Shown here one piece after another: positions 39,919 through 58,574 of a stretch of 64,000 bases of DNA. The translations under genes and the position numbers were made by a program. Under the pieces are notes generated by a model that did no database searches, had not been told where the DNA came from, and worked only from the letters and a program-made list of their open reading frames with translations. Source of the DNA: Acidimicrobiia bacterium (lineage in GTDB: Bacteria > Actinomycetota > Acidimicrobiia > Spongiisociales > ZC4RG35); NCBI GenBank assembly GCA_036556665.1, contig DATBIX010000029.1, forward strand, positions 6,429 through 70,428, in the 5' to 3' direction. How positions within the stretch are numbered: the first letter of the stretch is position 1; every line of letters starts with the position of its first letter.

Positions 39919-41948
39919 TCGACGTGGCCGAAAGCAGCGCTCTTGGGCGTCTGATGCGCCGTCGGGCGAGCAACACCGGCCTCGTCATGGCCGCTACCGC
40001 CACCCCCTACACCTTCCAGCGGACTCTGGTGACGCGCAACAACGCCGACCAGGCGATCGTCACCGGCCTCTCGTTCCTGCTCCACCAGACCACGACCTCG
40101 GCCATCCAGGAGACACTTCAGTTCCTGGCTCGCCCCCGGAAGACGGATCTGGACAGCGCGGATGGTGCCCACCGCTGGAGCAAACGCTCGATCGCGGTCG
40201 ATCTCGCCGCCTTCGCCGGTGGCATCGGAGTCCAGCGCGCTTTGAGGCAAGAGCAGGATGAGCCGATCCGGCGCGCCGCGGGGCGCACCGGCGGATGGCT
40301 GGTCTCCGCCGCCGGCGCTGCCGGCGCCCTGGTCGGAGTCGGACAGGAAGCGGCCGTGGCCGCACGACCCGGCGACCGCCGTTTCACCGGTTTGGGGGCG
40401 ACGGCATTGATCGCCGGAGCCATGGCGGGCCTGCGCGAGTTCGCCCGGCGCAGGGCAGCAGACCTCGACTCCGACCTCGGTCTGGAGCCATCGGACATCT
40501 CGGCCGGCCGGTCGCTGGCGCTGGCGCTAGGAGTCACCGCCGGATCGGCGCTGGTCGGCCACGGTGAGCGGGTGCTGGCCGACAGGGTCGCCTGGCTGTT
40601 CTCCAAGGCTCTGCCGGGGGATGAAGATCAGTGGCGCCCAATCGGGCATGTCGCCACCCTGGCCGCAGTCGGTTGGGGAGGCCGTTTGGCGGCTGCCCGG
40701 GTGGCCCATCTCATCGAGGGACGGGAGAAGCGCATGGAGCCCGCCCTCGACGTCCCGCCGCTGGCCCCCGAATTGAGCGGTGCGACGGGGAGCCTGGTCC
40801 CCTATCGAACCATGTCACGAATGGGTCGGCGGTTCGTCTGGACGGTGCGGAGGCCGGAGGAGATCGAGAGGGTGATCGGCGAGCCCGCCCTCGCCCACCC
40901 GATCCGCTCCTATGTGAGCTTGGAAGCGGCACCGTCCGAGGAGGAGAGGGTCTCGTTGGCCCTGCGTGAGCTGGAGCGGGCGGGTGGTCTCGATCGATCC
41001 TGGCTGATGGTCGCCTCCCCGACCGGCACCGGGTACGTCAACTATGCCGCCGCCGGGGCCCTGGAGTTCCTCACCAAGGGCGACTGCGCCACCCTGGCCA
41101 TGCAGTACTCGCAGCGACCATCCCCTCTATCTCTCGACCGGGTGAGCCATGGCCGGTCCCAGTTCTCCAAGTTGATGACGGCGCTTTCCGAAAAGCTCCG
41201 TTCGCTTCCCGAAGACGGTCGCCCCAAGGTCGTCTTGTTCGGCGAGAGCCTCGGCGCCTGGACCAGCCAGGACGCCTTCCTCGGCCAAGGGACACGAGGT
41301 CTCCGATCCGCCGGGATCGACTTCGCCATCTGGATCGGCACCCCGTACGGAAGCGAATGGAAGGACCAGGTGCTGGAAGGGCCCTCGGTCGACGTCGACC
41401 CATCTCTGATCGGGGTCTTCGACAGGATCGAGGAGCTGGAAGCCCTGGACGAGGCAGCGAGGAAGGAGATCCGCTACGTCATGGTCACTCACACCAATGA
41501 CGGCGTCGCCCTGTTCGGCCCCGAGCTCCTCGTGCAGCAGCCCGACTGGTTGGGAGTGCCGGAGACCCGCCCGCGCAAGATCCCGAAGAGCCAGAAGTGG
41601 ACGCCGATCACCAGCTTCGTGCAGACCATGATCGACACCAAGAACGCGGCACGAGTCGTGCCGGGCCGGTTCGATGCGGAAGGGCACGACTACCGAGCAG
41701 ACATCGTCCCGTTCTTCGATGCGGTGCTCGGCTTTGGGCGTCCGACCGATCTACTCGCCGCGATCGCCCGGGCGCTTGAGGAGGAGGAGGCGTTTCGGAC
41801 CGAGTGGATCGCAGAGCACGGGGAGGTGGGCAAGAGCATGGCATCGGTGGTCCTGTCCGAGGTGAGGGAGAGTCATCCCGAGGTGTTTCTCGAGGCCGTC
41901 TACTCGTTGAGGAGAAAACGGGGTCAGACCGTCTCTGACGCCGGTTGA
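39915..41948 (+). CDS. membrane-anchored alpha/beta-hydrolase (abhydrolase_9 type)
   Basis: PTGTGYVN, MQYS, GESLG nucleophile motif, GHDY. Confidence 0.82.
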   Translation: MIDVAESSALGRLMRRRASNTGLVMAATATPYTFQRTLVTRNNADQAIVTGLSFLLHQTTTSAIQETLQFLARPRKTDLDSADGAHRWSKRSIAVDLAAFAGGIGVQRALRQEQDEPIRRAAGRTGGWLVSAAGAAGALVGVGQEAAVAARPGDRRFTGLGATALIAGAMAGLREFARRRAADLDSDLGLEPSDISAGRSLALALGVTAGSALVGHGERVLADRVAWLFSKALPGDEDQWRPIGHVATLAAVGWGGRLAAARVAHLIEGREKRMEPALDVPPLAPELSGATGSLVPYRTMSRMGRRFVWTVRRPEEIERVIGEPALAHPIRSYVSLEAAPSEEERVSLALRELERAGGLDRSWLMVASPTGTGYVNYAAAGALEFLTKGDCATLAMQYSQRPSPLSLDRVSHGRSQFSKLMTALSEKLRSLPEDGRPKVVLFGESLGAWTSQDAFLGQGTRGLRSAGIDFAIWIGTPYGSEWKDQVLEGPSVDVDPSLIGVFDRIEELEALDEAARKEIRYVMVTHTNDGVALFGPELLVQQPDWLGVPETRPRKIPKSQKWTPITSFVQTMIDTKNAARVVPGRFDAEGHDYRADIVPFFDAVLGFGRPTDLLAAIARALEEEEAFRTEWIAEHGEVGKSMASVVLSEVRESHPEVFLEAVYSLRRKRGQTVSDAG

Positions 41949-43549
41949 CGCCCAGCTTCTGAGCCCACCGGCTCCACCGGGACCAGACGGGTGTAGTGGA
42001 GAGCGATGAGGGCGACAACGGCCAGCACTGCCAGGCTTGCCCGCAACCCGGCGATTCGCGCCATCTCGTTCTCCTCCATGATGGCGGCCGCCTCCTCCGC
42101 CGGGACCCCGGCCTCATCGAGCCCGGCTTGAAGCTGGGCATTGGAGACGAACGGGATCCCGCCTGCCAGCTCTACCTCGGCCTCGGCGGTCGCCTCGGGT
42201 GGTACGGCCGGGTTCTCCTGGATGCCCTGGATGAAGGCAGTGGTGAGAGCGGCGATCAAGATCGAGCCGGCCAGGGCAGTGCCGAGCGAGGCGCCCAGGT
42301 TGGTCATCGTGTTCTGCAGGCCACCGACCTCTCCACTCTCCTCATCAGGCACGGCGGAAACCGTGACCGCGCCCAGCTGCGAGGCGAGGGCGCCCACTCC
42401 GATACCGGCGAAGAGCAAGGGCACGGTGACGATCTCGGCGCCGGCCCCGGCTTCGAGAGCCGCGATCAACGAGACGATCCCGGCCAGCAGCGCCAGAAGC
42501 CCCCAACGCACCACCTTGCGTGGCGGCGCCTGGGGCCAATACCTGGGAATGGCCACGGCGGCCAGGAGCAGCGTGACCGAGAGCGGGAGCAGCCGTATCC
42601 CGGTATCCAACGCACTCAGGCCAAGTGCGACCGAGAGAAACAACGGCACGGTGAAGAACAGCCCCGCCTGGATCAGAAACTGGAAGAAGAACATGGTGAG
42701 CCCGCCGCGAAGCTGGGGGTTGTCGAGCATGGCGCGGCGAACCAGAGGCTCCCGGCCCTGGGCGACCACACGCTCCTCCCAGCCGAAGAAGAGCCAGACC
42801 ACGAACATCCCGGCCAGGATCAACCACAACGTCGGGGAGATCCCGAGGAAGTCCGGTCCCCCTGGCTTGGGCTGAACCCAGCCCCACTCACCGCTGCGAA
42901 GCACCCCAAAGACGGCGAGACCGAGCCCGATGGCGGAGAGCATCGCTCCGACCACATCCAACCGGTACCGGGCTTCGGGGGGAGCGTCGTTCATCCGTCG
43001 TGAAAGGGCGAGAATGGCGATGACGATCAGCACCTCGCCGGCGAACACGTAGCGCCACGTCCAGTAGGTGGTGACCGCCCCTCCGATCAAGGGGCCTGCC
43101 GCCACCGCGATGGCGCCTGCGGAGGCCACCAGGCCATATGCCCGCGGCCTCCCCGCCGGGGGGAAGTTGGAGGCGACCAGGGCGACGATGGCCGGCATGA
43201 TCAGCGCCGCCCCGATCCCCTCCAGGAAGGACCATCCGATGATGAGGACTGTCAGGTTCGGGGCGAGAGCGGTGGTCAAGGAACCGGCGCCATAGATGAT
43301 GCACCCGATGCTGAAGGCCTTGCGCCGGCCGATGAGGCTGCCGATCTTGCCCCCGGTGATCATCAGAGTGGCCATCACCAGCGTGTACAGCGTGATGGCG
43401 GTCTGGATGCCGGTGACCGTGGTTCCCAGATCCTCGGCGACCTGGGCGATCGACACGTTCATGACTGAGCTGTCGAGCGTCATCAGGAACTGGCCCGAGG
43501 CCAGTGTCAGCAGGACGATTCCTGTGCTGCTGCGCGCTGGCGTCGTCAC
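41924..43549 (-). CDS. MFS transporter (14-TM DHA2-like)
   Basis: LDSSVMNV, GGKIGSLIGRRK, GPLIGG. Confidence 0.9.
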   Translation of the reverse strand: MTTPARSSTGIVLLTLASGQFLMTLDSSVMNVSIAQVAEDLGTTVTGIQTAITLYTLVMATLMITGGKIGSLIGRRKAFSIGCIIYGAGSLTTALAPNLTVLIIGWSFLEGIGAALIMPAIVALVASNFPPAGRPRAYGLVASAGAIAVAAGPLIGGAVTTYWTWRYVFAGEVLIVIAILALSRRMNDAPPEARYRLDVVGAMLSAIGLGLAVFGVLRSGEWGWVQPKPGGPDFLGISPTLWLILAGMFVVWLFFGWEERVVAQGREPLVRRAMLDNPQLRGGLTMFFFQFLIQAGLFFTVPLFLSVALGLSALDTGIRLLPLSVTLLLAAVAIPRYWPQAPPRKVVRWGLLALLAGIVSLIAALEAGAGAEIVTVPLLFAGIGVGALASQLGAVTVSAVPDEESGEVGGLQNTMTNLGASLGTALAGSILIAALTTAFIQGIQENPAVPPEATAEAEVELAGGIPFVSNAQLQAGLDEAGVPAEEAAAIMEENEMARIAGLRASLAVLAVVALIALHYTRLVPVEPVGSEAGRQPASETV

Positions 43550-43616
43550 CGGGGCAAGCTACCGGGTGGAACTGGTGGATTGAGGAATTGGAAGCCGGCT
43601 GGCCGCCGAGACGAGG

Positions 43617-44804
43617 TCAGGTCGGCTCCGACCACGGGTCGCGCATATGGATCTTGGCCCAAACGTAGGAGAGAACGATCCTGAGATTGGCGACGATCGG
43701 AACGGCGAGTATCGCCCCCAGGATCCCGGCCACCTGGTAGGCGGCGGTGATCGAGATCAGGACCACGAGCGGAGGCAGGGTGACCGAGTGGCCCATGACC
43801 TTGGGAGCGATCAGGTTGCTCTCCAGTTGCTGGATCAGGATGTAGGCGACGATCACGATCAGGGCGAACAGGAAGTTGTTCATGTCGAATCGGGTCGAGC
43901 CCTGGAACAGGGCGATGAGAACTGCAGGGATTGTGGCGATGATCGGACCGAAGGTCGGGATCACCTCGAGCAATCCTGCTATCACACCGAGGAAGAGGGC
44001 ACCGGGAACCCCGATCAGCCAGGTCACCACGAAAGTGGTGAATCCGATGACCAGCACCATGATCCCCTGGCCACGGATGTAGTCGCTCCACGACCTGTTC
44101 AGTCGCCGGCCGAGCTCGATGACCTCGGGTCGGTTCTTCTCTCGTACGAGGCCGGGAAGAGGGCGGAACAGCCTTTGAGAATCGACGCTCAAGTAGATGG
44201 CGATGATCAGCACGAAGAAGATGGAGGAGACAACGCTCACCAAAACCCCGACCAACCCCGCCGCAGCGGCCAGGGCTTCCTCGAAAGCAGTGAGAAGGGC
44301 GCCGGGCTCGAGGAGCCCTGCCCCCTCCGATGCCTCGCTGCTCGCGCTCGTGATCGCCCCGGAGAGACCCGAGAAGTCGATTCCCATGAAGTCGCTCTCC
44401 TCCAGGCTCATGGCGAGATCGGTCAGCCAGGCATCGAGGTCGGCGACGATCTCCGAGAAATCGATCTGGGCGATCGAGTTGATCAGCAGTATGGGAAGAA
44501 GGAAGACGGCTCCGTAGGCAATGGCGGCGACGATCAGGTAGGTGACGGTCACCGCCGCCCACCGGGGTAGATGGAGCTTGCTGACCGCCAGACGCAGGAT
44601 CGGCTCGATCAGAAACGCCAGCAAGGCGGCGATCACGATCGAGTCGAGCACCCCGAACAGAAGGAAGAACCCAAGGACGACCACCCCGACCACGGTGGCG
44701 ATCGCTGCCAGGCGCCTCGTAGGCGCGTCCCAGACCGGCGAGCTCGGTCGTCGCGCTTCGAGGTCGCCGCCGGTTGTGGTCGGTTCGGACTGGTCGCCTG
44801 TCAT
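43617..44804 (-). CDS. AI-2E (PerM) family transporter
   Basis: YIRGQ, LEVIPTFGP, QQLESNLIAPKVMG; ATG 44804 with GAGGTG RBS. Confidence 0.88.
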   Translation of the reverse strand: MTGDQSEPTTTGGDLEARRPSSPVWDAPTRRLAAIATVVGVVVLGFFLLFGVLDSIVIAALLAFLIEPILRLAVSKLHLPRWAAVTVTYLIVAAIAYGAVFLLPILLINSIAQIDFSEIVADLDAWLTDLAMSLEESDFMGIDFSGLSGAITSASSEASEGAGLLEPGALLTAFEEALAAAAGLVGVLVSVVSSIFFVLIIAIYLSVDSQRLFRPLPGLVREKNRPEVIELGRRLNRSWSDYIRGQGIMVLVIGFTTFVVTWLIGVPGALFLGVIAGLLEVIPTFGPIIATIPAVLIALFQGSTRFDMNNFLFALIVIVAYILIQQLESNLIAPKVMGHSVTLPPLVVLISITAAYQVAGILGAILAVPIVANLRIVLSYVWAKIHMRDPWSEPT

Positions 44805-45047
44805 CGTCACCTCGGGGAGGATCTGCCCATTCTCGAGCCCCGCCTGGCTGACGAAAGGTAGCGGCGACCACGCCACACCGCCCGGCTCTTCCTTGGTGCC
44901 GGACGGCTCCTCAGGCAACCCTCGATGCTCGAGAAGGCTCCCATGGGGCGCCCCAGGTCATCGCACTGGCGACGAAGAGCTGCAGCCGCTCCTGCAACGG
45001 TGAGCTCATCGCCTTCGCCCAGCGACCCTGTCCTCGAGCAGGTTGGT

Positions 45048-46472
45048 TCACCCCGGAGGTGACAGGACCGCGTTGACCACATGAGCCAGACCGTTGGCCC
45101 CGGTTACGTTGCTGACAGTCACGATTGACGAGCCATTGAGCACCACCTGCCCTTGGTCCAACGATATGGCGATATCGCTCCCCTGAGCCGTGGTCACCGA
45201 GCTCGACCCCATCAGGTCGAACCCGCTCAGGCTGCCCTCCACCACGTGGTAGAGGAGCACCGCTTGCAGCGCTTCGGGATCGGTGGGCAATGGCTCGGCC
45301 AACTGGCCGAACGCCTCGTCGGTGGGTGCGAACAGGGTGAACGGGCCAGGTCCCGAGAGTGTCTCGGTCAGACCGGCTGTCTCGATCGCAGCCAGGAGCT
45401 GGGTGAACTGTCCCGCCTCGGCCAGGACGTCGAGGACCCCTCCCGAGACAGGCGGCACCGTCGTCGCCGGTGGGGTGGTTGTGGTTGGCGCCGCGGTGGT
45501 TGTGGTCTCCGCCGCCGTCGTTTCCGGCGCAGGAGCGGTGGTGGTCGCTCCGGCGGCTGTCGTCGAAGTCGTGGGGGGCGGGTTGCCCGCATCTTCGAGC
45601 GCTGCCTCGAAGGCGCGCATGGTGGCGGCATCCACCACACCGGTGGCGGGAACTCCCAGATCGGTCTGCAGGGCCTTCAGCGCCTCCTCGACCTCTGGCG
45701 ACCACTGCCCGTCCACGGGTCCGCCGTAGTGGCCGGTGGCGGTCAGGATCCCCTGCAGTGCTCCGATCTCGGCAGAAGACCTCTGACCGAGGGCGGCGGC
45801 GAGGGCTGCCTGTGTCGCCGGGTCCATCAACCCGGTCACAGGCAGGCCTGCCTCCTCCTGGAGGGTCTCCACCGCGGCGATGGTCATCGGACCGTAGATA
45901 CCGTCGATGCGCCCGGTGTAGTAGCCGACAGCAGTGAGATCGGTCTGCAACGCGGTCACGTAGTCGGAGACCCATTGCGTGGCCTGGGCCTCGTCCTCGA
46001 TGCACCCGGCGTCGGCGAAGAGAAGCGCCCACGCGACCTGAAGCTGATAAGCCGCCGAAGTGAAGGCAACGCCGGCGTCGACCACCGCCGTCCGCTGGTC
46101 GATTCCGGCCACCGCGTCCGCAAATGCAGCCTCCGCCTCTTCGACCGCCTCGATGCTCTCCGGCTCGACGATCTCGATCGTGACCGCCGAATCGGGGTCG
46201 GCCTGCACAGCCTCCTGGAACTCGGTGGCCGAGTCGAGCACGGCATCACGGGCCGGCTCCAGGTCGGCTCCGGCCGACTGGACGTCGCCGACGGTCAGTT
46301 CGACGTCTTCGAACAACCCTCCGTATGTGTCCAGGGCTGTCACGTACTCCTCGACGTCGGAGCAGAACTGTGCCTGGGCCTCCTCGACGTCAATCTCGTC
46401 CGACTGTCCGCAGGCCGAAACGGCGAGGGCGAGAACGACGATCCCGGTGAGAGTGCGTAGTCCGGCATTCAT
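45048..46472 (-). CDS. lipoprotein with two peptidoglycan-binding domains and C-terminal fasciclin (FAS1) domain
   Basis: Lipobox VSAC; DGIYGPMT..AV..LQ and DGQWSPEV..AL..LQ; FTLFAPTDEAF, LLYHVV, HVVNAVL. Confidence 0.82.
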   Translation of the reverse strand: MNAGLRTLTGIVVLALAVSACGQSDEIDVEEAQAQFCSDVEEYVTALDTYGGLFEDVELTVGDVQSAGADLEPARDAVLDSATEFQEAVQADPDSAVTIEIVEPESIEAVEEAEAAFADAVAGIDQRTAVVDAGVAFTSAAYQLQVAWALLFADAGCIEDEAQATQWVSDYVTALQTDLTAVGYYTGRIDGIYGPMTIAAVETLQEEAGLPVTGLMDPATQAALAAALGQRSSAEIGALQGILTATGHYGGPVDGQWSPEVEEALKALQTDLGVPATGVVDAATMRAFEAALEDAGNPPPTTSTTAAGATTTAPAPETTAAETTTTAAPTTTTPPATTVPPVSGGVLDVLAEAGQFTQLLAAIETAGLTETLSGPGPFTLFAPTDEAFGQLAEPLPTDPEALQAVLLYHVVEGSLSGFDLMGSSSVTTAQGSDIAISLDQGQVVLNGSSIVTVSNVTGANGLAHVVNAVLSPPG

Positions 46473-47293
46473 TGGGTTTTCGTCTCCTGATCGGAAGTCT
46501 GGGGCTTCTGGCCCCGCTTCGGCGTCGCCGGGGCAGACGGCCGCAACTGGGAGGAGAAGTAGTCGAGGGCGCTCTTGGTCTTGGTCGCCTGCTCCCCACT
46601 CAGGTCGACCCCGTGTGCAGTGAGAAAGGCACGCGCCTCGGCCGCCACCTGAAAGGCCTCGGCCGGCAGGCACTTGGTGGACAGCTCGAGGATCCGCGAT
46701 CCGTCCGGGTACAGCCAGAGCTCTGCCACCATCTTGCGGTCGAAGTCGGCTGGGTTGAACTTGAGTTTCAGGATGTTGATCGGGCCCAGCATGGCGAGAT
46801 CGTTCATCTTGAGGTCCTCGGGAGCGTGCTCCTTGTAGAACGCCTTCTGCTCCTTGGAGAAGACCTGGCCGGTCTTCGCCTTCCCAAGTGCCACCTCACG
46901 AACGGCTGCCGCGCTCGACTTGCCCTTCATCGAGGCCGAGCAGACAAAGCCGCCCGGCATCGCATCGACTTCGACACCGAACCCCGTCGAGCGACGTCTC
47001 TCGGGGGACAGCTGGTCGGGTACGACAGGTCGAAGCTTGATCACCGTGTCGCCCGCGCCGCCCTGGATCCGCCGGGCTCTGACCACCAGTCCGGCCTGAT
47101 TCAGGGTGAGCTCGGGCGTGTCGAAGAACAAGACCTGCCGTATCTCGGCGTCCAGAGGATCCATCCCTAGTGCGCTCGCCGTGGAGCGGATGTCCGAGTC
47201 GGGCACCGTGAGCTTGAGCTCGACCGTGTCCGACTTCTTCACCAGTTCGAGCATCTCGACCACCTGGGTGTCGGTAAGTCCTGGCGTCGTCAT
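46469..47293 (-). CDS. CYTH-like (triphosphate tunnel) protein
   Basis: VELKLTV, FFDTP, VRARR, VIKLRP, LELSTKC. Confidence 0.65.
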   Translation of the reverse strand: MTTPGLTDTQVVEMLELVKKSDTVELKLTVPDSDIRSTASALGMDPLDAEIRQVLFFDTPELTLNQAGLVVRARRIQGGAGDTVIKLRPVVPDQLSPERRRSTGFGVEVDAMPGGFVCSASMKGKSSAAAVREVALGKAKTGQVFSKEQKAFYKEHAPEDLKMNDLAMLGPINILKLKFNPADFDRKMVAELWLYPDGSRILELSTKCLPAEAFQVAAEARAFLTAHGVDLSGEQATKTKSALDYFSSQLRPSAPATPKRGQKPQTSDQETKTQ

Positions 47294-47312
47294 GGCGTCT
47301 ACCTCCTCGATG

Positions 47313-47636
47313 TCATTCGAACTCGATTGCCCGGTCGACGTCGTATCCGAGGGCCGCGGCGAGGCGAGGGGCCGCGGCCACGATCCTGGCTACCCCGGCG
47401 ACGGAGGCGACCGCCAACAGGGCGCCCACACACTCGGTGGGGCTGGCGCCGCCGGCGATGGCGTCTTCGACCAGGCGCCCGTAGGTTTGTGTCGAGGCCC
47501 CCATGGCAACGGCGGCACCGATCCCAACCAGGCCGCGCGTCCTCTGGTCCAGGGCGGGCGGCTTGAGCTTCCTCGGGGGGCCACCGGCCAGCCTCAACTC
47601 CGCCAGGATCGACTCGACTGTTCGGGAAGGGCTCAT
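47313..47636 (-). CDS. carboxymuconolactone decarboxylase (CMD/AhpD-like) family protein
   Basis: LDQRTRGLVGIGA...AIAGGAS; ATG 47636 preferred (ORF extends to 47714). Confidence 0.7.
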   Translation of the reverse strand: MSPSRTVESILAELRLAGGPPRKLKPPALDQRTRGLVGIGAAVAMGASTQTYGRLVEDAIAGGASPTECVGALLAVASVAGVARIVAAAPRLAAALGYDVDRAIEFE

Positions 47637-47709
47637 GTCTACGTGATGTCCATTGCTCGGACCAGCGAGCATCGCTTCGACCAGCAGACTGGGTGAGGGG
47701 TTGGAAAGC

Positions 47710-47728
47710 ATCACCCCTGGGGGATGAA
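47710..47728. promoter_or_regulatory. ATCRYCC-N5-GGRYGAW palindrome, copy 1
   Basis: ATCACCC-CTGGG-GGATGAA upstream of CMD-CYTH-fasciclin genes. Confidence 0.6.
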
Positions 47729-47734
47729 ACCCCT

Positions 47735-49951
47735 TCAGATGCCGAGCAAACCCGTCTCCTCGGCCTTTCGTACCGCCTCGCTTCTCGATGAGGCCTCAAG
47801 CTTTCGATAGATGGACATTGCCTGTGTCTTCACCGTATGTCTGGAGACAAAGAGACGCTCGCCGATCTCGGGGAAGCTGAGATGGGTCGCAAGCATCGGG
47901 AGCAGCCGCAACTCGGCATTGGTGAGAGCGGAGGCGCCCACCCGACCAGAATCCGGCGTCAAACCCATCTTGATCTCCTCGATTCTCTTGGGGAGAAGCC
48001 CCAGATCGGGGCGCTGGATGACTATGTCCTCGGCCTCACGAAGGACCTGTCTCGCTCCGGCCACGTCCGCCAGCTCGACGTAGGTGGTGGCCATCTCGAG
48101 TAGCGCCTGCACCGAGTATCCCGGCAGAGCCGCGTTGAGACGGGGTCGAAGACTCGCCGCTCGGGCCAGCAACTCGCGCGCCTTGGTCAGGTCGTTGCGT
48201 CTGCGAGCCAGCCGCGCCGACACGACGAAGGCGAGTGCGCTCGTGGCATACCCCTCGAGGCCGTAGTCGATGACATGACGCAACGACTTCGATGCGAAGT
48301 CGTTGGCCCGAGCCCAGTCCCCTGAATCGATGGCGATGACGGCGCGCTCCGCCAGGGCGACCGTGGCCGCGGCAGTGGCCAGATGGGGCTCGCTCAGTGT
48401 CACCGCCTCGGCGAACAATGAGTCTGCCCGTTCGACATCGCCATCCCACAGGGTGCCCATCCCCTCGATGGCGAACGCAGCCGGCACGAATCCCGAGCCG
48501 GGAGCCAGCTCTTCCCTTGCCGAGCGGGCATCCTCCACCATCGCCAAGGGCCCCGACCGGGTCTGGAGCGCTCGTGCCAGCCGGGCTATGGGATGCCGGG
48601 GCTCTTCTGCACCCAGCCACCTCTCCGCCCCCAACCCATCGCCGCTGAGGGCGGAGACCATTGCGCCCATGGCGGCGACGACCGGATAACGAGCCATCTC
48701 CCCGTTGTCCGCCAGCCAGTTCAGCCATGCCAGCAGGGTGTCGGAGCGGCCTCGCCCATAGGTGGCCCGGCCGATGTCGGCCACGATTCGCGCCACCCGA
48801 TCCACATCGCCGGCTCTCTGAGCATGATGGATGGCCATTTCCGGCAAGTGGTTGGCTTCGAACCACTCCGCGGCTCGGGCATGCAGGTCGACGATGTCTT
48901 CGGGATGGCGCAGGGCCAGCTCGGCCTGAAGCAGATCCTGGAACATGTGGTGATAGCGATGCCACTCCCGGGTGCGGTCGAGACGCAGGATGAGCAGATT
49001 GGACTCTTCCAGCGCCTCCAACACACGCCCTGAGCCAGTCGTCCCCAACACGGCATCGCACAAGGGGCCGCTGAGCTGGTCGAGAATCGAGGTTCGAACC
49101 AAGAACGACACCCGAGCCGGAGAGAGCCGATCGAGGACCTCACTGCGCATGTAGTCGGCCACGAACAGATCGTCACCTCCGACCGACAGGGGTCGTGGCT
49201 CCGAGGAACCGAGCTGCATGGCGAGCCCGGTGAGATGGACGCCGACCGGCCAGCCTTCGGTCCGCGTCATCACCTCTCCGAGGTCGTACCCCGCATCCAC
49301 CCCCATGGCGTCGAGGAGGGCGGCCGCCTCCGCCTCGTCGAAGGCGAGATCCTGGGCGGTCACCTCCAGGTGTGCCCCCCCGGATCGGAGCGCCGACATC
49401 GGCAAGTTCCTGTCGGAGCGTGAGGCGACGACTACCTGCATCCTCCGCCCCAGTTGGAACAGCAAGGCTCCCAGGACGTCGATCGACGAACGGTTGCGCA
49501 ACGAGTCGACATTGTCGAGGAAGACGAGCCCCTCCGAGCCAGACCGGATCGCCCGCATCAGCCGGGAGATTCCATGGGAGATCGCCTCGTCCGATGTGAA
49601 ATGGAGCTCCGAAGAGTTCCTCGACCTCATCAGACCTGCCCCGCGCAGCGCGACCGCGATGTGAGAGAGAAGGTCGGCGGGATCGTCGTCGGTGCGATCG
49701 AGAGACAACCAAGCAGTCGGCATCGCCGCGTCGACCATCGACTGCGCCATCAGTAGGGTCTTGCCATATCCCGCGGGAGCGACGATGGTGACCACCCGAC
49801 CAGCTCCTACCGCCCCGAGACGGGGGATCAGCTGCTCGCGCCGAACGAGACTGGGACGGAGGGCGGGGGGATGGAATTTGACCTCTGGGATGCCAGCCAC
49901 CGGAGGATGGTGGCCCGACAGCCCCGGCGACGGGCCACTGGTGGTGGTCAT
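47735..49951 (-). CDS. MalT-like LuxR family regulator (P-loop, TPR-like sensor, LuxR HTH)
   Basis: APAGYGKT, AWLSLD, RTEGWP, YHHMF, LTNAELRLL...TVKTQ..SIYRKL. Confidence 0.9.
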   Translation of the reverse strand: MTTTSGPSPGLSGHHPPVAGIPEVKFHPPALRPSLVRREQLIPRLGAVGAGRVVTIVAPAGYGKTLLMAQSMVDAAMPTAWLSLDRTDDDPADLLSHIAVALRGAGLMRSRNSSELHFTSDEAISHGISRLMRAIRSGSEGLVFLDNVDSLRNRSSIDVLGALLFQLGRRMQVVVASRSDRNLPMSALRSGGAHLEVTAQDLAFDEAEAAALLDAMGVDAGYDLGEVMTRTEGWPVGVHLTGLAMQLGSSEPRPLSVGGDDLFVADYMRSEVLDRLSPARVSFLVRTSILDQLSGPLCDAVLGTTGSGRVLEALEESNLLILRLDRTREWHRYHHMFQDLLQAELALRHPEDIVDLHARAAEWFEANHLPEMAIHHAQRAGDVDRVARIVADIGRATYGRGRSDTLLAWLNWLADNGEMARYPVVAAMGAMVSALSGDGLGAERWLGAEEPRHPIARLARALQTRSGPLAMVEDARSAREELAPGSGFVPAAFAIEGMGTLWDGDVERADSLFAEAVTLSEPHLATAAATVALAERAVIAIDSGDWARANDFASKSLRHVIDYGLEGYATSALAFVVSARLARRRNDLTKARELLARAASLRPRLNAALPGYSVQALLEMATTYVELADVAGARQVLREAEDIVIQRPDLGLLPKRIEEIKMGLTPDSGRVGASALTNAELRLLPMLATHLSFPEIGERLFVSRHTVKTQAMSIYRKLEASSRSEAVRKAEETGLLGI

Positions 49952-50005
49952 GCTCAGGCGAAGGGTAACCAGGACACATCCATGGTCAGTCCAGACAGGG
50001 GAGAG

Positions 50006-50332
50006 CTAGCTCTTTCCCGGCTCGATTCCGAATGCGGCGCTCAACTCAGGCACGGCGCTGCCGAGGCGGGCGGCTCCCACCAGTGGCGAGATGACGACAA
50101 CGGCCTCCAGGATCTCTTCGTCGTCGAGACCGGCGGCGTGAGCCCGGTCTATGGCCACCTGATACGAAGCGCCCTCCGCCTCCAGGGCGACGAGCGCCGC
50201 GATCAGGACCAACGCCGACGTGCGGTGGTCGAGGCCGCAGGCGACTTCGTTGTGGGCCAGGTTGTCGAAGGCATTCTCGTCGCCGAGGGTCAGCCGTCGG
50301 AGCAACTCTTCGAGGTTTTCGGGGATCGCCAA
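50006..50332 (-). CDS. CMD/AhpD-like family protein (second paralog)
   Basis: LDHRTSALVLIAA...AHAAGLDDEEI. Confidence 0.75.
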   Translation of the reverse strand: MAIPENLEELLRRLTLGDENAFDNLAHNEVACGLDHRTSALVLIAALVALEAEGASYQVAIDRAHAAGLDDEEILEAVVVISPLVGAARLGSAVPELSAAFGIEPGKS

Positions 50333-50400
50333 TGATTCCTCGAGACGGTCGCCTGGAAGCTCTTTCGAGCGTCATCGTCCGCTACCCGTTCGAAAGATCC

Positions 50401-50442
50401 ATCGCCCTCCATGGGTGATTCGTATCATCCAAGGTGGGCGAT
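50401..50442. promoter_or_regulatory. tandem ATCRYCC-N5-GGRYGAW palindromes, copies 2 and 3
   Basis: ATCGCCC-TCCAT-GGGTGAT tcgt ATCATCC-AAGGT-GGGCGAT in the divergent CMD/SHOCT intergenic region. Confidence 0.65.
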
Positions 50443-50499
50443 GCACAACGCCCCCTAGCTTCGTTGTATTGACAGCGACGACAACCGGAAAGGAGAGAA

Positions 50500-50883
50500 A
50501 TGCCACTGTTGGATCTGTTCTGGGCCATGCTCTGGTTCTTCATGTTCTTCGTCTGGATCTGGCTGTTGATCAGCCTGTTCGGAGACATCTTCAGGAGCGA
50601 GGACCTGTCAGGCTGGGGCAAGGCCGGATGGACGATCTTCATCATCCTCCTGCCCTTCCTCGGAGTGCTGGTCTATCTGATTGCGAGAGGCAAGTCGATG
50701 CAGGAGCGGGCCCTGAAACAGGCCGCGGAACAAGAGAAGATGACTCGCCAGTACATCCAGGAGGTGTCGGGCGCGTCCGGCGCCTCGGCAGCCGACGAGA
50801 TCGCCAAACTCGCCGCATTGCGGGATCAGGGCGTTCTGACCAACGAGGAGTTCAACGCCCAGAAGGCTGCCCTCCTCGGCTGA
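50500..50883 (+). CDS. PLDc_N + SHOCT domain membrane protein
   Basis: DIFRSEDLSGWGKAGW...LPFLGVLVYLIARG; ADEIAKLAALRDQGVLTNEEF. Confidence 0.9.
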   Translation: MPLLDLFWAMLWFFMFFVWIWLLISLFGDIFRSEDLSGWGKAGWTIFIILLPFLGVLVYLIARGKSMQERALKQAAEQEKMTRQYIQEVSGASGASAADEIAKLAALRDQGVLTNEEFNAQKAALLG

Positions 50884-50940
50884 GTCATGGAAAGTGGCAG
50901 TTTCCTGGCTGACAGCCGGAACTGTCTCCTGCGGTACGGG

Positions 50941-50970
50941 GCAGTAGAGGTGCCGGGGCACCTCTACTGC
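50941..50970 (+). terminator. perfect stem-loop after SHOCT gene
   Basis: GCAGTAGAGGTGCC-GG-GGCACCTCTACTGC. Confidence 0.6.
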
Positions 50971-50993
50971 CTCGTCTTCGGATAGGTTCCCCG

Positions 50994-51461
50994 TTGGCGA
51001 GATCACAGCAATCCCGTTGGCGTTTCGCGACCAACAACTGGCGGGTGGCTCTGGTTCGCTTCATGGTGAGCGGGCTGCTCGTGGTCTTGGTCATCGCCCT
51101 ACTCCCTTCGATCGACAGCGAGTTGGAGACGCCGATCGCCTCGGTTCTCACGCTCGCGGTGGTGTACGCACTCCTCGATGCCTTCGTTCGACCCTTTCTC
51201 AACGTCCTGCTGATGCCGTTCGTGGTCCAGTCCTATGGCCTGGCCCTCGTGGCGGTCGACATCCTGATCTTCGCCCTACTCCTTCGCTTCTCCCGAGGGT
51301 TTCTCGAGCTCTTGGGCAGCACCATCGTGGTCGACAGCCTCTGGCCGATCCTGATCGGCGGGCTTGTACTTGGCCTGCTCAAACTCGGTGCGGAGGCGGT
51401 GCTCGGACTCACCCCACCGGTCGAGGTGGAAGCAGGACCCGATCGGGCGTCGGCGAGATGA
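50994..51461 (+). CDS. 4-TM holin-like (superfamily IV / DUF360) membrane protein
   Basis: ALLDAFVRPFLNVLLMPF...GLALVAVD; start uncertain. Confidence 0.7.
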   Translation: MARSQQSRWRFATNNWRVALVRFMVSGLLVVLVIALLPSIDSELETPIASVLTLAVVYALLDAFVRPFLNVLLMPFVVQSYGLALVAVDILIFALLLRFSRGFLELLGSTIVVDSLWPILIGGLVLGLLKLGAEAVLGLTPPVEVEAGPDRASAR

Positions 51462-53206
51462 GACTCGGATCCGGAGCCGAGGAACGTCTTCGCCTGTTAC
51501 GCGTCTACGACACGCTCTGGGCATACGGGATCGATGCCGTCTTCGATCGCGAGGGGCTGATCGCCCGAACCCGGTGGCGCATGCAGAACTGGCTGTGGCG
51601 GCCCGACGTGACGCCCTCGCACGTTCCGGCCCCGGTCAGGTTCCGTTTGCTGCTCCAGGAGCTAGGTCCCACCTATGTGAAGATCGGCCAGATCGTCTCC
51701 AGCCAGGGGCGGGCCTTGCCCGCCGATTGGGCTCTCGAGCTGGAGAGGCTGCAGAGCGATGTGAAGCCATTCCCCTATGAGGAGGTGGAGGAGCGGATCA
51801 TCACCGACCTCGGCGCGCCCCCCCAAGAGCTCTACGCAACTTTTGAAAAGGAGCCCTTGGCGGCAGCCTCGCTGGCTCAGGTCCACCGCGCCAGCACCCG
51901 TGATGGCCGCCAGGTGGTGGTCAAGGTGCAGCGTCCCGGCATCCACGGTCAGCTTCGCTCCGACGTCCGCATCCTGGTTCGCATGGCACATGCCCTGGAG
52001 CGACGGACGCGGTGGGCGCAAGACGTCGACCTGTCGGGGGTTCTCCTCGAATTCGGCACCACCCTCCTGCGAGAGCTCGACTACTCGATCGAGGCATACA
52101 ACGCCCGGCGTCTCAACCGAGTGTTGGAGCCGATCGAAGGTCTCCACGTGCCCGAAGCGATCCCGGAGCTCTCATCATCCCAGGTCTTGACTCTCGAGTT
52201 CATCGACGGGGTCAAGCCGACGCGAAGTGCCGAGATCGATGCTGCCGGGATCGATCGCGCGGTTCTGGCGGATCGCATGATCCGGGGCGCGGTCAAGATG
52301 ATGATCATCGATGGGTTCTTCCACGGGGACCCGCATCCCGGCAACGTCCTCGTCGAGTTGGGCACGGGCCGATTGACCATGCTCGACACCGGGATGGTCG
52401 GCGAACTGACCGTACATGATCGGATCAAGCTCGGCAGCTTGATGCTGGTGATTCGAAATCGAGACGTGACCGGCCTGGCCCAGACCCTCAAGTCGCTCTC
52501 CACACCGTTTCGCGAGACCGACGACACCAGGTTCTACAAGGACTTCGAGCGGAAGCTCACCCCTTTCCTCGACCCACCACCAGGCCGGACGATCGAGGTG
52601 GTCTCAAAGGTGATCCCGAAATCGATGGATCTCCTTCGTGACCACGGATACCGGCTCGACCCCCAGTTGACGCTGGCGATCAAGTCGCTGACCCAGGCGG
52701 AGGCCATAACCACGGCCCTGGTGCCGGAATGGTCTGGGAGCGAGTTCATGCAGCGGGCGCTCGACGCATCCTTCGACCTTCTCCCCGAGGTGGTCACTCC
52801 GGAGGCAGTCAAGGACGTGGTGGTGAAGCAGGCCAGCTACGTGGTCAGGGAGGCGGCACAACAGCTGCCCTCCTTCCAGGAGGGTGCCTTCAAGTGGCTC
52901 GAGCACCTGAGACGAGGCGGTCTCAAAGTCGAATTGGACACCACCGGGCTCGATCGGCAGGTCAAGCAGCTGAGCGGCATCTCGAAGCTGCTCGCTCTGG
53001 CGATCCTCATCACCGGTCTGGTGATCGGGTCGGCCATCGCCGCCGGGGTTGCCGGCATCGAGGAGAGCCCGCTCTCCCCGGTGCGCGATTTCAGCCTCCT
53101 CATCTTCGCCGGGTCATCATTGATAGGCGCGGTCGCAGTCATCTATCTGGCCTGGCGCTTGGTGCGTGGCGAGCGAAAACCGAGGGAGCCGATCGACCGG
53201 CTGTGA
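51458..53206 (+). CDS. AarF/UbiB/ABC1 atypical kinase
   Basis: LGPTYVKIGQ, AAASLAQVH, VKVQRP, ELDY, FHGDPHPGN, LDTGMVG; C-terminal TMs. Confidence 0.92.
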   Translation: MRLGSGAEERLRLLRVYDTLWAYGIDAVFDREGLIARTRWRMQNWLWRPDVTPSHVPAPVRFRLLLQELGPTYVKIGQIVSSQGRALPADWALELERLQSDVKPFPYEEVEERIITDLGAPPQELYATFEKEPLAAASLAQVHRASTRDGRQVVVKVQRPGIHGQLRSDVRILVRMAHALERRTRWAQDVDLSGVLLEFGTTLLRELDYSIEAYNARRLNRVLEPIEGLHVPEAIPELSSSQVLTLEFIDGVKPTRSAEIDAAGIDRAVLADRMIRGAVKMMIIDGFFHGDPHPGNVLVELGTGRLTMLDTGMVGELTVHDRIKLGSLMLVIRNRDVTGLAQTLKSLSTPFRETDDTRFYKDFERKLTPFLDPPPGRTIEVVSKVIPKSMDLLRDHGYRLDPQLTLAIKSLTQAEAITTALVPEWSGSEFMQRALDASFDLLPEVVTPEAVKDVVVKQASYVVREAAQQLPSFQEGAFKWLEHLRRGGLKVELDTTGLDRQVKQLSGISKLLALAILITGLVIGSAIAAGVAGIEESPLSPVRDFSLLIFAGSSLIGAVAVIYLAWRLVRGERKPREPIDRL

Positions 53207-53252
53207 CCCGAACGGGCTCGTCGGACGGGCAGAGACGGCGCGTGTAGCCTCG

Positions 53253-53271
53253 ATCACCCGATGTGGGCGAT
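53253..53271. promoter_or_regulatory. ATCRYCC-N5-GGRYGAW palindrome, copy 4
   Basis: ATCACCC-GATGT-GGGCGAT upstream of DUF7144-like gene. Confidence 0.6.
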
Positions 53272-53346
53272 GACGAGGAGCTACGTGAGAGTTCGACTGT
53301 GGGAGACGGGGGCGAAGACGGTCGGGGGCACGTTCAAGGAGGCATT

Positions 53347-53748
53347 GTGACGAATCGAGAGACGAGCGGCTGGGCGATCGGATGGATCACCTTCGCCGCG
53401 GTGATGATGATCATGATCGGTTTCTTCCATGGGATCGCAGGTCTGGTCGGCGTGCTCGAGGACGACCTCTACGTGCTCACCAACGAGTACTTGTTCGAGC
53501 TCGATGTCACGACCTGGGGTTGGATACACCTGGTGATGGGTGTGCTGGCGATCGTTGCCGGGTTCTACCTCTTCACCGGGGCGGTGTGGGCCCGCACCAT
53601 CGGCGTGATCCTCGCCGTCGTGAGCGCCCTGGCCAACTTCGCCTGGCTCCCCTGGTACCCGGTCTGGTCGATCATCATGATCACGGCCAGCGTCTTCGTG
53701 ATCTGGGCGCTCACGGCTCACGGCCGCGACGTCGTTCAGCGCGTCTGA
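53347..53748 (+). CDS. DUF7144-like four-TM membrane protein
   Basis: GWITFAAVMMI, TTWGWIHL, WARTIGV, FAWLPWYPVWS. Confidence 0.8.
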   Translation: MTNRETSGWAIGWITFAAVMMIMIGFFHGIAGLVGVLEDDLYVLTNEYLFELDVTTWGWIHLVMGVLAIVAGFYLFTGAVWARTIGVILAVVSALANFAWLPWYPVWSIIMITASVFVIWALTAHGRDVVQRV

Positions 53749-53779: not shown

Positions 53780-54235
53780 TTGACCGGCAACCTGGTCGAC
53801 GGTCTCTCGTTGCAGCTCACCGGGCTGCTCCCGGCGGACGGTTCTCATGTCCGCCGGGAGCTGTTCGACGAGATCGAGAGACGACTCCCCAGGGACCCGG
53901 AGGCAAGGGTCAACGTGCAGCTCTCCGAGCTCAACCCGGGCCGAACCGCGTCGTGGCACGTTCACAACGGGATCGTCTACTTCGTGATCGTGCGCGGGCT
54001 GATCACCCTGCACTACGAGGGCAGGTCGGAGCACTACTCGGCCGGCGACGTCTACACCGAGCCGATCGGCGTGGTGCACCGGGCGCTCAACCCCCATCCT
54101 GATATCCCGGCATCACTGATCGGGTTCTGGGTGACCGCAGCAGACCGGCCCCACGTGACCGAGGTGAGCCCTCCTCCCTGGGAGCCGGAGAAGACCAACC
54201 ACCCCTCCCTCGAGCGGGAGTCGTCCACGGGCTGA
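53780..54235 (+). CDS. cupin domain protein
   Basis: SWHVHNG, YSAGDVYTEPIGVVH. Confidence 0.75.
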   Translation: MTGNLVDGLSLQLTGLLPADGSHVRRELFDEIERRLPRDPEARVNVQLSELNPGRTASWHVHNGIVYFVIVRGLITLHYEGRSEHYSAGDVYTEPIGVVHRALNPHPDIPASLIGFWVTAADRPHVTEVSPPPWEPEKTNHPSLERESSTG

Positions 54236-54271: not shown

Positions 54272-54311
54272 TGGATCGTTGTGGGACTTGGATCCGAGAA
54301 TCGGCATCATC

Positions 54312-55532
54312 ATGGCCCGTTTCACCTACCAGACCGTCACCTCGGGGCTCCAGAAAAGGCCGGAATCGGCTTCGTGGCAACGTCTGGCTGTCACACTCGC
54401 CGGCTGCGGTGGCGTTCCGGCCAACGGCCCAATAGCCCACGACCTCGACGTGTACGCCGTTCTGACCGGAGGCACCGAGAGGAAGCTGGCCGATCTGTGG
54501 CTGAGCCGCCCCGACCGAAACGCCCCGGTCCTGTTGGTCGCCCACCCCGAGGACAACTCATTGCCCGCGGCCCTGGAGGCGCTGGCCTGGTGGCAGCAAC
54601 AGGGAAACAGGGGCCAGATCGTGTTCATGGCCGGCGACGAGGACCAAGCCTCACTCGAGTCCGCCCTCGAGGACCTCGAGGCATGGCACACGCTGCGCCG
54701 CAGTCGAATCGGGGTAGCCGGTGTGTCGGATTGGCTGATCGCCTCATCACCGGACCCCTCCGATGTCCGCCGGGTGTGGGGCCCGGAGGTGGTGACCCTC
54801 GACCTCGCCCCGGCGATCAGGTCGTACGCCATGGTCGGGGCTGACGGGGGTCTCGCACTGAGCGAGAGCGTCGAGCGCGGTGCTCTGGAGACTGTCGAAC
54901 CGACCTCGATGGGGATCCGCCATGCCGCCGACGTGCTCCCCTCCCTGGTGGGGATGATGGAAGGACAGCACCTCGATGCCGTGACCGTGCGTTGCTTCGA
55001 CCTGCTGGAGGCGCTGGGGACATCCGGCTGCCTGGCATTGGCCGAGCTCAACGACCGGGGAGTCGTCGCCGGCTGCGAGGGAGACGTGCCAAGCACGCTG
55101 GGAATGCTGTGGGCACGAGCCCTGATCGGCACAACCTCGTGGATGGCGAACCCGGCTCGGGTCGACACGGCGACGAACAGCCTCCTGGTGGCGCACTGCA
55201 CCATTGCCCGTTCGATGGTGAGCTCCTACACCTTGCGGTCACACTTCGAGTCGGGGATCGGCGTGGCCATCGCGGGTCGGATGCCTGCAGGCGATTACAC
55301 GATGCTTCGAATCGGGGGCCGTCGTCTCGAGAGCTTGTGGCTGGCCGAGGGAGTGGCCACCGATCGGTCGGCCGAGGAAGGGCTCTGCCGCACCCAGCTC
55401 GAGCTACTGCTCGACAGGGGCTCCGTCGACGAGCTGCTGATGAGACCACTCGGAAACCACGTTGTGGTACTTCGCGGCCGGCAGGCCGACCGCCTGCACA
55501 AGTGGTGGCAGACCTTTGTGGCTGCACCATGA
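54312..55532 (+). CDS. L-fucose/L-arabinose isomerase-like protein
   Basis: TVRCFDLL, AGCEGD, WMANP, AHCT, LGNH. Confidence 0.7.
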   Translation: MARFTYQTVTSGLQKRPESASWQRLAVTLAGCGGVPANGPIAHDLDVYAVLTGGTERKLADLWLSRPDRNAPVLLVAHPEDNSLPAALEALAWWQQQGNRGQIVFMAGDEDQASLESALEDLEAWHTLRRSRIGVAGVSDWLIASSPDPSDVRRVWGPEVVTLDLAPAIRSYAMVGADGGLALSESVERGALETVEPTSMGIRHAADVLPSLVGMMEGQHLDAVTVRCFDLLEALGTSGCLALAELNDRGVVAGCEGDVPSTLGMLWARALIGTTSWMANPARVDTATNSLLVAHCTIARSMVSSYTLRSHFESGIGVAIAGRMPAGDYTMLRIGGRRLESLWLAEGVATDRSAEEGLCRTQLELLLDRGSVDELLMRPLGNHVVVLRGRQADRLHKWWQTFVAAP

Positions 55533-58520: not shown

Positions 58521-58530
58521 CTCGCCTCTC

Positions 58531-58547
58531 TTGCGAACCAGTCGCAA
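58531..58547. promoter_or_regulatory. Nur-box-like palindrome upstream of nikM
   Basis: TTGCGA-ACCAG-TCGCAA, 11-27 nt before the ATG. Confidence 0.6.
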
Positions 58548-58574
58548 CAAGCCTAGCAAGGCGACAGGATGCGC

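Follow-up and report, generated by a model that had tools for sequence, protein, structure and literature searches.

Which protein works at a short inverted repeat that stands four times around a single regulator gene, and does it switch the neighbouring genes on or off? The question is raised by a contig of an Acidimicrobiia bacterium (DATBIX010000029.1), from which a stretch of 64,000 nucleotides was analysed; the whole stretch is called the window below. It holds the gene of a MalT-like regulator of the STAND/LAL type and, near this gene, four copies of the 19-bp sequence ATCRYCC-N5-GGRYGAW. A first reading made from the DNA letters alone (the sequence-only reading) took the repeat to be the operator of this regulator. 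The analysis presented here makes it likely, in our judgement, that the adjacent regulator binds the four inverted repeats, from which it would drive four promoters as an activator in a regulon of the type described for Actinoplanes.

Four sites around one regulator gene

The regulator gene and the four sites (S1 to S4), with the promoters that each site is predicted to serve, are the following.

47735-49951, minus strand: MalT-like STAND/LAL regulator, 738 amino acids (721 if the start is at 49900)
47710-47728, minus strand: S1, predicted activator site for the promoter of the downstream CMD - CYTH - lipoprotein (- AI-2E - MFS) unit
50401-50419, minus strand: S2, predicted activator site for the promoter of the leftward CMD-regulator operon
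50424-50442, plus strand: S3, predicted activator site for the rightward SHOCT - holin-like - ABC1 promoter
53253-53271, plus strand: S4, predicted activator site for the DUF7144 - cupin - 417-amino-acid protein unit

In a pattern scan of the window (G+C about 66%) these four copies gave seven matches when the strands were counted separately, with three of the sites being palindromic; 0.06 matches are expected by chance, and none of 100 shuffled sequences reached seven. A weight matrix trained on the 81 sources described below, with the consensus ATCATCC-N5-GGATGAT, scores S1 at 22.3, S2 at 17.8, S3 at 23.0 and S4 at 19.6 bits. The sequence-only reading had reported four intergenic copies close to the regulator, with none noticed elsewhere in the window, and the scans found all four at exactly its positions and between genes; the runner-up in the window is an intragenic position of 9.1 bits, and the reversed sequence of the window, used as a control, contains no position of 6 bits or more. 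A copy of the palindrome with one mismatch, ATCGTTCGCGTAGGGCGAT, at 36354-36372 (9.1 bits) falls where coding sequences overlap and most likely arose by chance.

S1 lies 7 nucleotides past the stop codon of the regulator (47735), ahead of the downstream CMD gene, and its minus strand reads TTCATCCCCCAGGGGTGAT followed by GC; the equivalent position after the regulator stop codon is filled in many of the loci of relatives. The upstream CMD gene and the SHOCT gene diverge from a region of 167 bp, in which S2 and S3 stand back to back. S4 is found between the genes of the ABC1 kinase and the DUF7144 protein, and one relative (locus L201) has an equivalent site.

Conservation of the site with the regulator

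A profile of 23 regulator relatives was used to choose the best 80 loci, at 39-63% identity, from GTDB species-representative genomes; together with the window they make up 81 sources. The 80 loci span Acidimicrobiia, Ilumatobacteraceae, Thermoleophilia, Streptosporangiaceae, Jiangellaceae and unclassified Actinomycetota, with no Micromonosporaceae among them. The strict palindrome occurs in 25 of the 80. When the matrix was iterated it found 219 sites of at least 14 bits in 1.48 Mb and none in the reversed sequence, and such sites turn up in 68 of the 81 sources. These sites are intergenic in 203 of the 219 cases (93%), though 86% of the DNA codes. The proposal that the motif is the operator of the adjacent MalT-like LuxR-family protein thus gains from its conservation with regulator relatives in Acidimicrobiia, Thermoleophilia and Actinomycetes.

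The arrangement of the genes is kept as well. The cassette (SHOCT, divergent) - two sites - CMD - regulator - one site - CMD is found in at least 16 sources, and a site marks the start of the regulator gene itself, or of the CMD gene before it, in 37 of 105 cases. In the closest relatives (L201 and L202, about 60% identity) the synteny of the window is kept, with sites at all four equivalent positions, and when the divergent region is aligned the conserved islands are the two sites and two blocks resembling a -10 element. Several other loci (L016, L024, L025, L035 and L037) carry five to eight sites each, so that their regulons are much larger than that of the window; the sites there head genes for glutamate decarboxylase, ABC1 kinase, DUF7144, cytochrome bd, GH15 and an unnamed family of 133 amino acids.

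The predicted proteins of the 81 sources were clustered, and the families that recur behind a site are these.

CMD: site upstream of 50 of 66 members
PLDc_N-SHOCT: 15 of 16
DUF7144: 15 of 19
Cytochrome bd subunit I (CydA): 8 of 20
PLP-dependent (glutamate) decarboxylase: 7 of 11
GH15: 6 of 11
Sulfatase: 4 of 6
ABC1: 4 of 6
DUF6325: 3 of 10
DUF2252: 3 of 7

Three further frequent target families have no Pfam match. Genes often found nearby encode CydB, an NDH-2-like flavoprotein, glucose-6-phosphate dehydrogenase, a GMC oxidoreductase, an ion channel and an M20 peptidase, and also a P-type ATPase, which was recognised from its sequence and not in the Pfam scan.

The regulon found from the motif alone

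Metagenome contigs were also scanned with one narrow variant of the motif, which samples about 2% of the site variants, and 120 loci matched. Of these matches 71 are due to chance: 44 lie on low-GC contigs, where no match to any regulon family was seen anywhere in the loci, and 27 of the 76 high-GC matches lie inside genes, where none adjoins a regulon family. Among the remaining 49 intergenic high-GC matches, 29 adjoin regulon families (DUF6325, DUF7144, SHOCT, DUF2252, glutamate decarboxylase, sulfatase, GH15, CMD and two families without a Pfam match) and 12 adjoin a regulator. Further intergenic matches adjoin genes for DUF7144, an AI-2E transporter, a K+-channel-like protein, a Na+/H+ exchanger, PAP2 and others. 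Starting from nothing but the motif, the scan thus leads back to the regulon.

Geometry of the predicted promoters

An element resembling a -10 is found 31-36 nucleotides from the centre of the site, with the sites oriented toward the gene. TANNNT peaks at +31 from the centre, and T at +36 is present in 63% of 212 target promoters compared to 24% in the controls. Where a site has a gene on one side only, 70 of 107 cases show T at +36 toward the gene and 24 of 107 show it in the opposite direction (p = 3e-10). The promoter-proximal half of the site is extended to GGRYGATGC, T at +9 and G at +10 being present in 82-84%; in its extended form the half can be taken as a weak -35 (nTGnnn) with 17 bp to the -10. 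Upstream of the single inverted repeat there are no further conserved positions, and a core of 19-23 bp alone is conserved.

Since the -10 stands at a fixed distance of 31-36 nucleotides, the centre of the site falls at about -43 from the predicted transcription starts and overlaps the -35, which is the position of a class II activator. All four sites in the window fit the spacing rule, with the following predicted -10 elements.

50464-50469, plus strand: TTGTAT, SHOCT promoter, behind S3
50374-50379, minus strand: GACGAT, CMD-regulator promoter, behind S2
47683-47688, minus strand: TCTGCT, downstream CMD promoter, behind S1
53293-53298, plus strand: TCGACT, DUF7144 promoter, behind S4

In the order of this list, transcription is predicted to start near 50476, 50367, 47676 and 53305. 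The rule also corrects two gene starts. The open reading frame of the downstream CMD protein is open to 47714, but the predicted transcription start is at about 47676, so the start codon is the ATG at 47672 or the one at 47636; by the same rule the DUF7144 gene does not start at 53263.

The sequence-only reading had stated that MalT-type regulators bind arrays of sites. This is at variance with the loci studied here, which have one inverted repeat per promoter. Paired sites serve divergent promoters and are no cooperative array; their spacing varies from 23 to 107 bp across the loci.

The regulator

The regulator consists of a P-loop NOD domain, a helical-repeat sensor and a C-terminal GerE helix-turn-helix. 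The Walker A motif GYGKT is invariant among the 23 relatives, and residues 29-389 match a MalT fragment (PDB 8bob) by sequence with an E value of 2.8e-28; in BLASTP the protein is 27% identical to MalT of E. coli K-12 over 377 amino acids (E 1e-27). The GerE domain (PF00196) is found at residues 675-730 with 36.4 bits (cut-off 23.5) and is 31% identical to the DNA-binding domain of MalT over 62 amino acids, while the sensor region gave no sequence alignment with the sensor of E. coli MalT. In the structural model (predicted local distance difference test, pLDDT, 83) residues from about 330 to 663 form all-helical repeats, mostly with values above 85. The best Foldseek match of the model is again MalT 8bob (E 3.7e-13, template-modelling (TM) score 0.77), followed by a STAND-TPR protein and Apaf-1/CED-4; TPR proteins are among the fold matches too, as is 6mfv, a STAND-TPR protein aligned over 694 columns. 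Two family models are matched below their cut-offs: TPR_MalT of Pfam with 34.7 bits (cut-off 45), and the MalT equivalog NF003420 of NCBIfam with 225.8 bits (cut-off 537), where the N-terminal half alone matches. The regulator is MalT-like but it is not MalT.

The recognition helix is near-invariant across the relatives, so that helix and motif can be compared as an association of presence and absence alone. This association favours the pairing of regulator and motif, as a site stands within 600 bp of 42 of 51 regulators with the helix SRHTVK and of 21 of 49 others. Six loci of Streptosporangiaceae type (L021, L022, L049, L055, L060 and L061) have a second and longer LAL paralogue after the regulator, at about 12200-12400, with the helix SVNTVKSHLKSIYRKL; a site stands between the regulator gene and this second LAL gene, which suggests a cascade of regulators.

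Proposed mechanism and its alternatives

The model that we propose is as follows. A dimer of the C-terminal GerE-type helix-turn-helix domains would bind the two 7-bp half-sites, (A/T)TCRYCC and GGRYGA(T/A), which stand 5 bp apart. The statistics of the promoters place the centre of the site about 43 bp upstream of the transcription start, so that the proximal half, GGRYGATGC, would cover a weak -35 which stands 17 bp from a TANNNT-like -10. From this position the regulator would act as a class II activator, as suggested by the geometry and by the genetics of Actinoplanes. By analogy with MalT, ligand and ATP may release the NOD-sensor module from autoinhibition. Leftward the regulator would then drive the CMD-regulator promoter, which amounts to a predicted positive autoregulation of its operon through S2, and the CMD-CYTH-lipoprotein(-AI-2E-MFS) promoter; rightward it would drive the SHOCT-holin-like-ABC1 and DUF7144-cupin-417-amino-acid promoters.

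Could the palindrome instead be bound by a different transcription factor encoded elsewhere, with the MalT-like regulator gene being just one of its targets? The sources which have a regulator relative and no site would fit such a factor, as would the presence of a regulator at 12 of the 49 intergenic motif-first loci; these loci are mostly 1-6 kb long, and the absence of a regulator from them is uninformative. No DNA-binding family besides the regulator recurs in the 81 sources, where the common families are CMD and the regulator only. The half-site is the MalT-box core GGA(T/G)GA, a 7-5-7 inverted repeat suits a dimer of GerE-type domains, and in Actinoplanes deletion and overexpression of malT shift the motif-headed genes in the expected directions (PMC7567727). 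We regard another factor as improbable. Slightly less probable again is that the regulator does bind the sites and represses, or acts dually, by occluding the -35. The overlap with the -35 is a position also used by repressors, and overexpression of malT slowed the growth of Actinoplanes (PMC7567727), which by itself gives no direction. These promoters have no recognisable -35/-10 pair of their own: a scan of 14.7 kb for the sigma-70 consensus gave one promoter-like match, at none of the sites. MalT and the characterised LAL regulators are known in general as activators, and the fixed -10 register with the site centre near -43 is a class II activator arrangement. In Actinoplanes, moreover, the targets fall upon deletion and rise upon overexpression (PMC7567727).

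It is very improbable that the repeats act as an RNA hairpin, attenuator or terminator, or are copies of a mobile or REP-like (repetitive extragenic palindromic) repeat. Every site can form a 7-bp stem, S1 and S4 come directly after stop codons, and the adjacent pair at 50391-50452 folds into a long hairpin of -30.1 kcal/mol (z -5.3). A conserved RNA stem should show covariation of its arms, and none is seen: complementary pairs number 107 where 107.7 are expected, and 91 where 100.1 are expected. The half-sites thus vary independently, so what is conserved are two half-sites for a protein, not an RNA hairpin. The stability of single sites is ordinary (z -0.6 and -2.0), no T-tract follows the sites, and at the sites there is no Rfam match and no terminator-like hit; on these grounds an RNA hairpin was rejected. 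Transcripts from these promoters do not include the double site, given that their predicted starts come after the sites. As both predicted starts are outside the hairpin at 50391-50452, and the spacing of paired sites varies elsewhere, this hairpin is probably a by-product of two palindromes which have the same half-sites. A mobile repeat is also hard to reconcile with the conservation of the 19-23 bp core alone, with no flanking repeat body.

Several points weigh against the activator model which we prefer. The binding of the sites by the LAL protein is inferred for every member of the type; this includes ACSP50_3915 of Actinoplanes, for which the paper gives neither electrophoretic mobility shift assay nor footprint (PMC7567727). 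The co-occurrence of site and regulator in the LAL-anchored loci is partly there by construction, because the loci were chosen for the regulator, and 13 of the 81 sources have a regulator relative and no site of 14 bits or more. The shortness of the motif-first loci means that they say little about the regulator either way. A strict TANNNT at +31 or +32 occurs in just 22 of 254 cases, a weak -10 signal; what can be used are the T at +36 and the weak -35. The association of the site with the helix SRHTVK takes no account of phylogeny. Finally, the theme of the regulon is a guess from heterogeneous target lists; with low confidence it is most likely a stress programme of membrane, ion and energy homeostasis.

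This guess comes from the small membrane proteins, the ion transporters, cytochrome bd and glutamate decarboxylase among the targets, together with the arginine deiminase of Actinoplanes, which suggest ion, pH or energy homeostasis. The envelope or membrane-remodelling response favoured by the sequence-only reading is only one possible reading; across the genomes, sites also head genes for cytochrome bd, glutamate decarboxylase, GH15, sulfatase, ion channels and a Na+/H+ exchanger. A link to acid stress between DUF7144 and HdeD (DUF308) was considered and rejected (hhalign probability 1.4%).

Genes and transcription units

The gene map was made with a codon-score gene caller and checked by the frame-specific G+C content of third codon positions (GC3) and against Pfam and NCBIfam. 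The genes of the four units besides the regulator are listed here.

50006-50332, minus strand: upstream CMD-fold protein (U type, 108 amino acids; Pfam), just ahead of the regulator and in the same direction, without CxxC
47313-47672, minus strand: downstream CMD-fold protein (D type; Pfam), start ATG at 47672 or 47636
46469-47293, minus strand: protein of 274 amino acids with a predicted CYTH / triphosphate-tunnel-metalloenzyme fold
45048-46472, minus strand: lipoprotein with PG_binding_1 repeats and fasciclin domain (Pfam), lipobox VSAC
43617-44918, minus strand: AI-2E family transporter (Pfam), without a site of its own
41924-43549, minus strand: MFS transporter (Pfam), presumably the last gene of the leftward unit
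50500-50883, plus strand: PLDc_N-SHOCT small membrane protein (Pfam)
51045-51461, plus strand: small membrane protein with a Phage_holin_4_2 match (Pfam; four transmembrane segments)
51458-53206, plus strand: ABC1/UbiB-type atypical kinase, 582 amino acids (Pfam/NCBIfam)
53347-53748, plus strand: DUF7144 four-helix membrane protein (Pfam), GTG start after AAGGAGG
53780-54235, plus strand: Cupin_2 protein, placed in the DUF7144 unit by position
54279-55532, plus strand: protein of 417 amino acids with a weak match to sulfoquinovose isomerase, the last before a convergent gene

The gene content given by the sequence-only reading holds: the Pfam families match, the CYTH-like protein is recognised by its fold and the lipoprotein by its lipobox. 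Its statement that the motif heads these units was likewise correct, and the operon of the regulator itself has a site.

The protein of 274 amino acids belongs to no Pfam or NCBIfam family. Its model has a pLDDT of 92, and the best PDB matches are CYTH/triphosphate-tunnel enzymes, with AtTTM3 (5a67) at E 1.4e-9 and a TM score of 0.79 (target). It has more than 8000 close homologues, the top hits being 65-80% identical, and its conservation exceeds that of the regulator. Relatives of it are named 'adenylate cyclase' in two NCBI records. The N-terminus of the PG-binding/fasciclin protein is MNAGLRTLTGIVVLALAVSAC, a lipobox. Overlaps of start and stop codon by 4 nucleotides are found between the CYTH-fold and lipoprotein genes (46469-46472) and between the holin-like and ABC1 genes (51458-51461), and would suggest translational coupling inside both units. 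The AI-2E gene is probably co-transcribed with the unit of the downstream CMD, CYTH-fold and lipoprotein genes. The same synteny is found in L201, the AI-2E gene is directly headed by a site in L193, and an AI-2E gene is part of the Actinoplanes regulon, too. At the end of the MFS gene a terminator-like hairpin (GTCAGAGACGGTCTGAC and a T-rich tail, 41923-41939, minus strand) is a plausible end of the leftward unit. On the other side, just outside the regulon, are a gene for an F420H2-dependent quinone reductase (55545-55994, minus strand) and a CbiM-PDGLE fusion for cobalt/nickel uptake (57531-58559, minus strand), with no sites near them.

A possible role for the CMD proteins

The CMD genes of the loci fall into upstream and downstream types, and a site is found upstream of 20 of 27 genes of the U type and of 24 of 28 of the D type. 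Neither type has a CxxC or a conserved cysteine. An AhpD-like redox role is accordingly unsupported; the lone match to a 'peroxidase-related' family is weak and below threshold.

MalY, MalK and Aes act on MalT. By analogy the flanking, small and non-catalytic CMD proteins could be dedicated partners of the STAND regulator, as anti-activators or co-sensors, in a three-part CMD-LAL-CMD signalling cassette which drives a programme of ion, pH and energy homeostasis. We put this forward tentatively and think it has perhaps the smaller part of the chances. If it is true the programme would comprise cytochrome bd, NDH-2, glutamate decarboxylase, a Na+/H+ exchanger, a K+ channel, a P-type ATPase and many DUF membrane proteins, and it would be conserved across classes of mostly uncultured soil Actinomycetota. 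Literature searches returned nothing relevant on partnerships of CMD and LAL proteins. The conserved CMD-regulator-CMD cassette is the most novel element of the system.

Significance

The pair of regulator and operator was first seen in Micromonosporaceae; it is in fact found across Acidimicrobiia, Thermoleophilia, Streptosporangiaceae, Jiangellaceae and many metagenomic lineages. The system ties DUF7144, DUF6325, DUF2252, PLDc_N-SHOCT, the CYTH-fold family without a Pfam entry and the CMD-like proteins to cytochrome bd, glutamate decarboxylase, GH15 and ion transporters. The motif, the promoter geometry and a candidate master regulator together offer a way to find out under which condition these uncharacterised families act and what they do. 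The findings also suggest that the 'maltose-regulated region' of Actinoplanes may be read again, as a general stress or homeostasis regulon. No new regulatory principle is revealed.

Comparison with known systems

MalT of E. coli and the regulator of the window have a homologous NOD domain and a GerE-type C-terminal domain. The MalT boxes have the half-site core GGA(T/G)GA, and the promoter-proximal one overlaps the -35, as do the sites in the window. The region upstream of malP in E. coli K-12 (L203, 2475-2640) shows TCATCC and GGATGAGG, matching both the MalT-box core and the half-site. E. coli MalT is an ATP-dependent STAND activator, and the regulator of the window would be the same. The two differ in size (901 amino acids in E. 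coli, 738 in the window), and their sensor regions are not alignable. E. coli promoters have several asymmetric 10-bp boxes in direct repeat, whereas the promoters in the window have a single inverted repeat each. There are also no maltose or maltodextrin genes among the site-headed genes of the window, and in the set of loci as a whole the sites head genes for CMD, SHOCT, DUF7144, cytochrome bd, glutamate decarboxylase, GH15 and similar families.

In its geometry the system comes close to LuxR and TraR, which bind as GerE-type dimers to a palindrome of about 20 bp, the lux-box, centred near -42.5, where it replaces or overlaps the -35, and which act there as class II activators. A palindrome for a GerE-type dimer with class II geometry is what we predict in the window. 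The sensor is different, as it is a P-loop STAND ATPase with helical repeats and not a domain binding acyl-homoserine lactone, and the half-sites are unrelated. The cluster-situated LAL proteins of Streptomyces (for example PikD or SCO6993) have the N-terminal P-loop and the C-terminal LuxR helix-turn-helix and likewise come from Actinomycetota. They control clusters for secondary metabolites, while the regulator of the window is associated with conserved membrane, ion and energy genes through a motif shared across classes of the phylum.

The closest system is that of Actinoplanes sp. SE50/110, in which the MalT-like protein ACSP50_3915 governs the maltose-regulated region ACSP50_3900-3950 (Droste et al., 2020, PMC7567727). 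Transcriptomics showed that deletion of ACSP50_3915 lowers, and overexpression raises, the expression of about 40 of the 51 genes in the region. Seventeen mapped promoters carry TCATCC-N5-GGATGA with its 3' end 34.4 +/- 1.0 nucleotides from the transcription start, overlapping the -35, and the authors likened the palindrome to the E. coli MalT-box core GGA(T/G)GA (PMC7567727). The genes of the region include SHOCT, AI-2E, MFS, DUF1269, DUF308, an arginine deiminase operon, glucosidase, amylase and a second MalT-like gene; SHOCT, AI-2E and MFS are given in Table S3, and a DUF2252 gene of the matching region in A. missouriensis in Table S4. The system was reported within Micromonosporaceae alone (PMC7567727). 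Our literature search found no later work on the region.

In both organisms a MalT-like regulator of the LuxR family lies inside its own regulon, S2 heading the CMD-regulator operon in the window. The site is the same, as the sites in the window fit (A/T)TCRYCC-N5-GGRYGA(T/A), and the distance of 34.4 +/- 1.0 nucleotides between 3' end and start corresponds to a centre at about -43, the geometry of the window being a computed one. SHOCT, AI-2E and MFS are shared targets, and DUF2252 of A. missouriensis is found in related loci also, as compared by annotation names and not by sequence; in both cases most targets are small membrane proteins and transporters of no assigned function. The differences are in content and scale. 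The annotation of the Actinoplanes region lists no CMD gene, and the regulator there has an alpha-amylase and a membrane protein as its neighbours; genes for arginine deiminase, amylase and glucosidase are absent from the window, which has four sites and about 13 genes compared to 17 mapped promoters and about 40 genes. The hosts belong to Acidimicrobiia and Micromonosporaceae, respectively, and the regulators are likened by family, motif and geometry. The sequence-only reading had called the regulon uncharacterised and the operator the regulator's own, which has to be given up, as the same palindrome overlapping the -35 is published for MalT of Actinoplanes (PMC7567727). The system in the window belongs to the actinobacterial 'MalT / TCATCC-N5-GGATGA' type of regulon, of which it is a new member, and is not a new kind of system.

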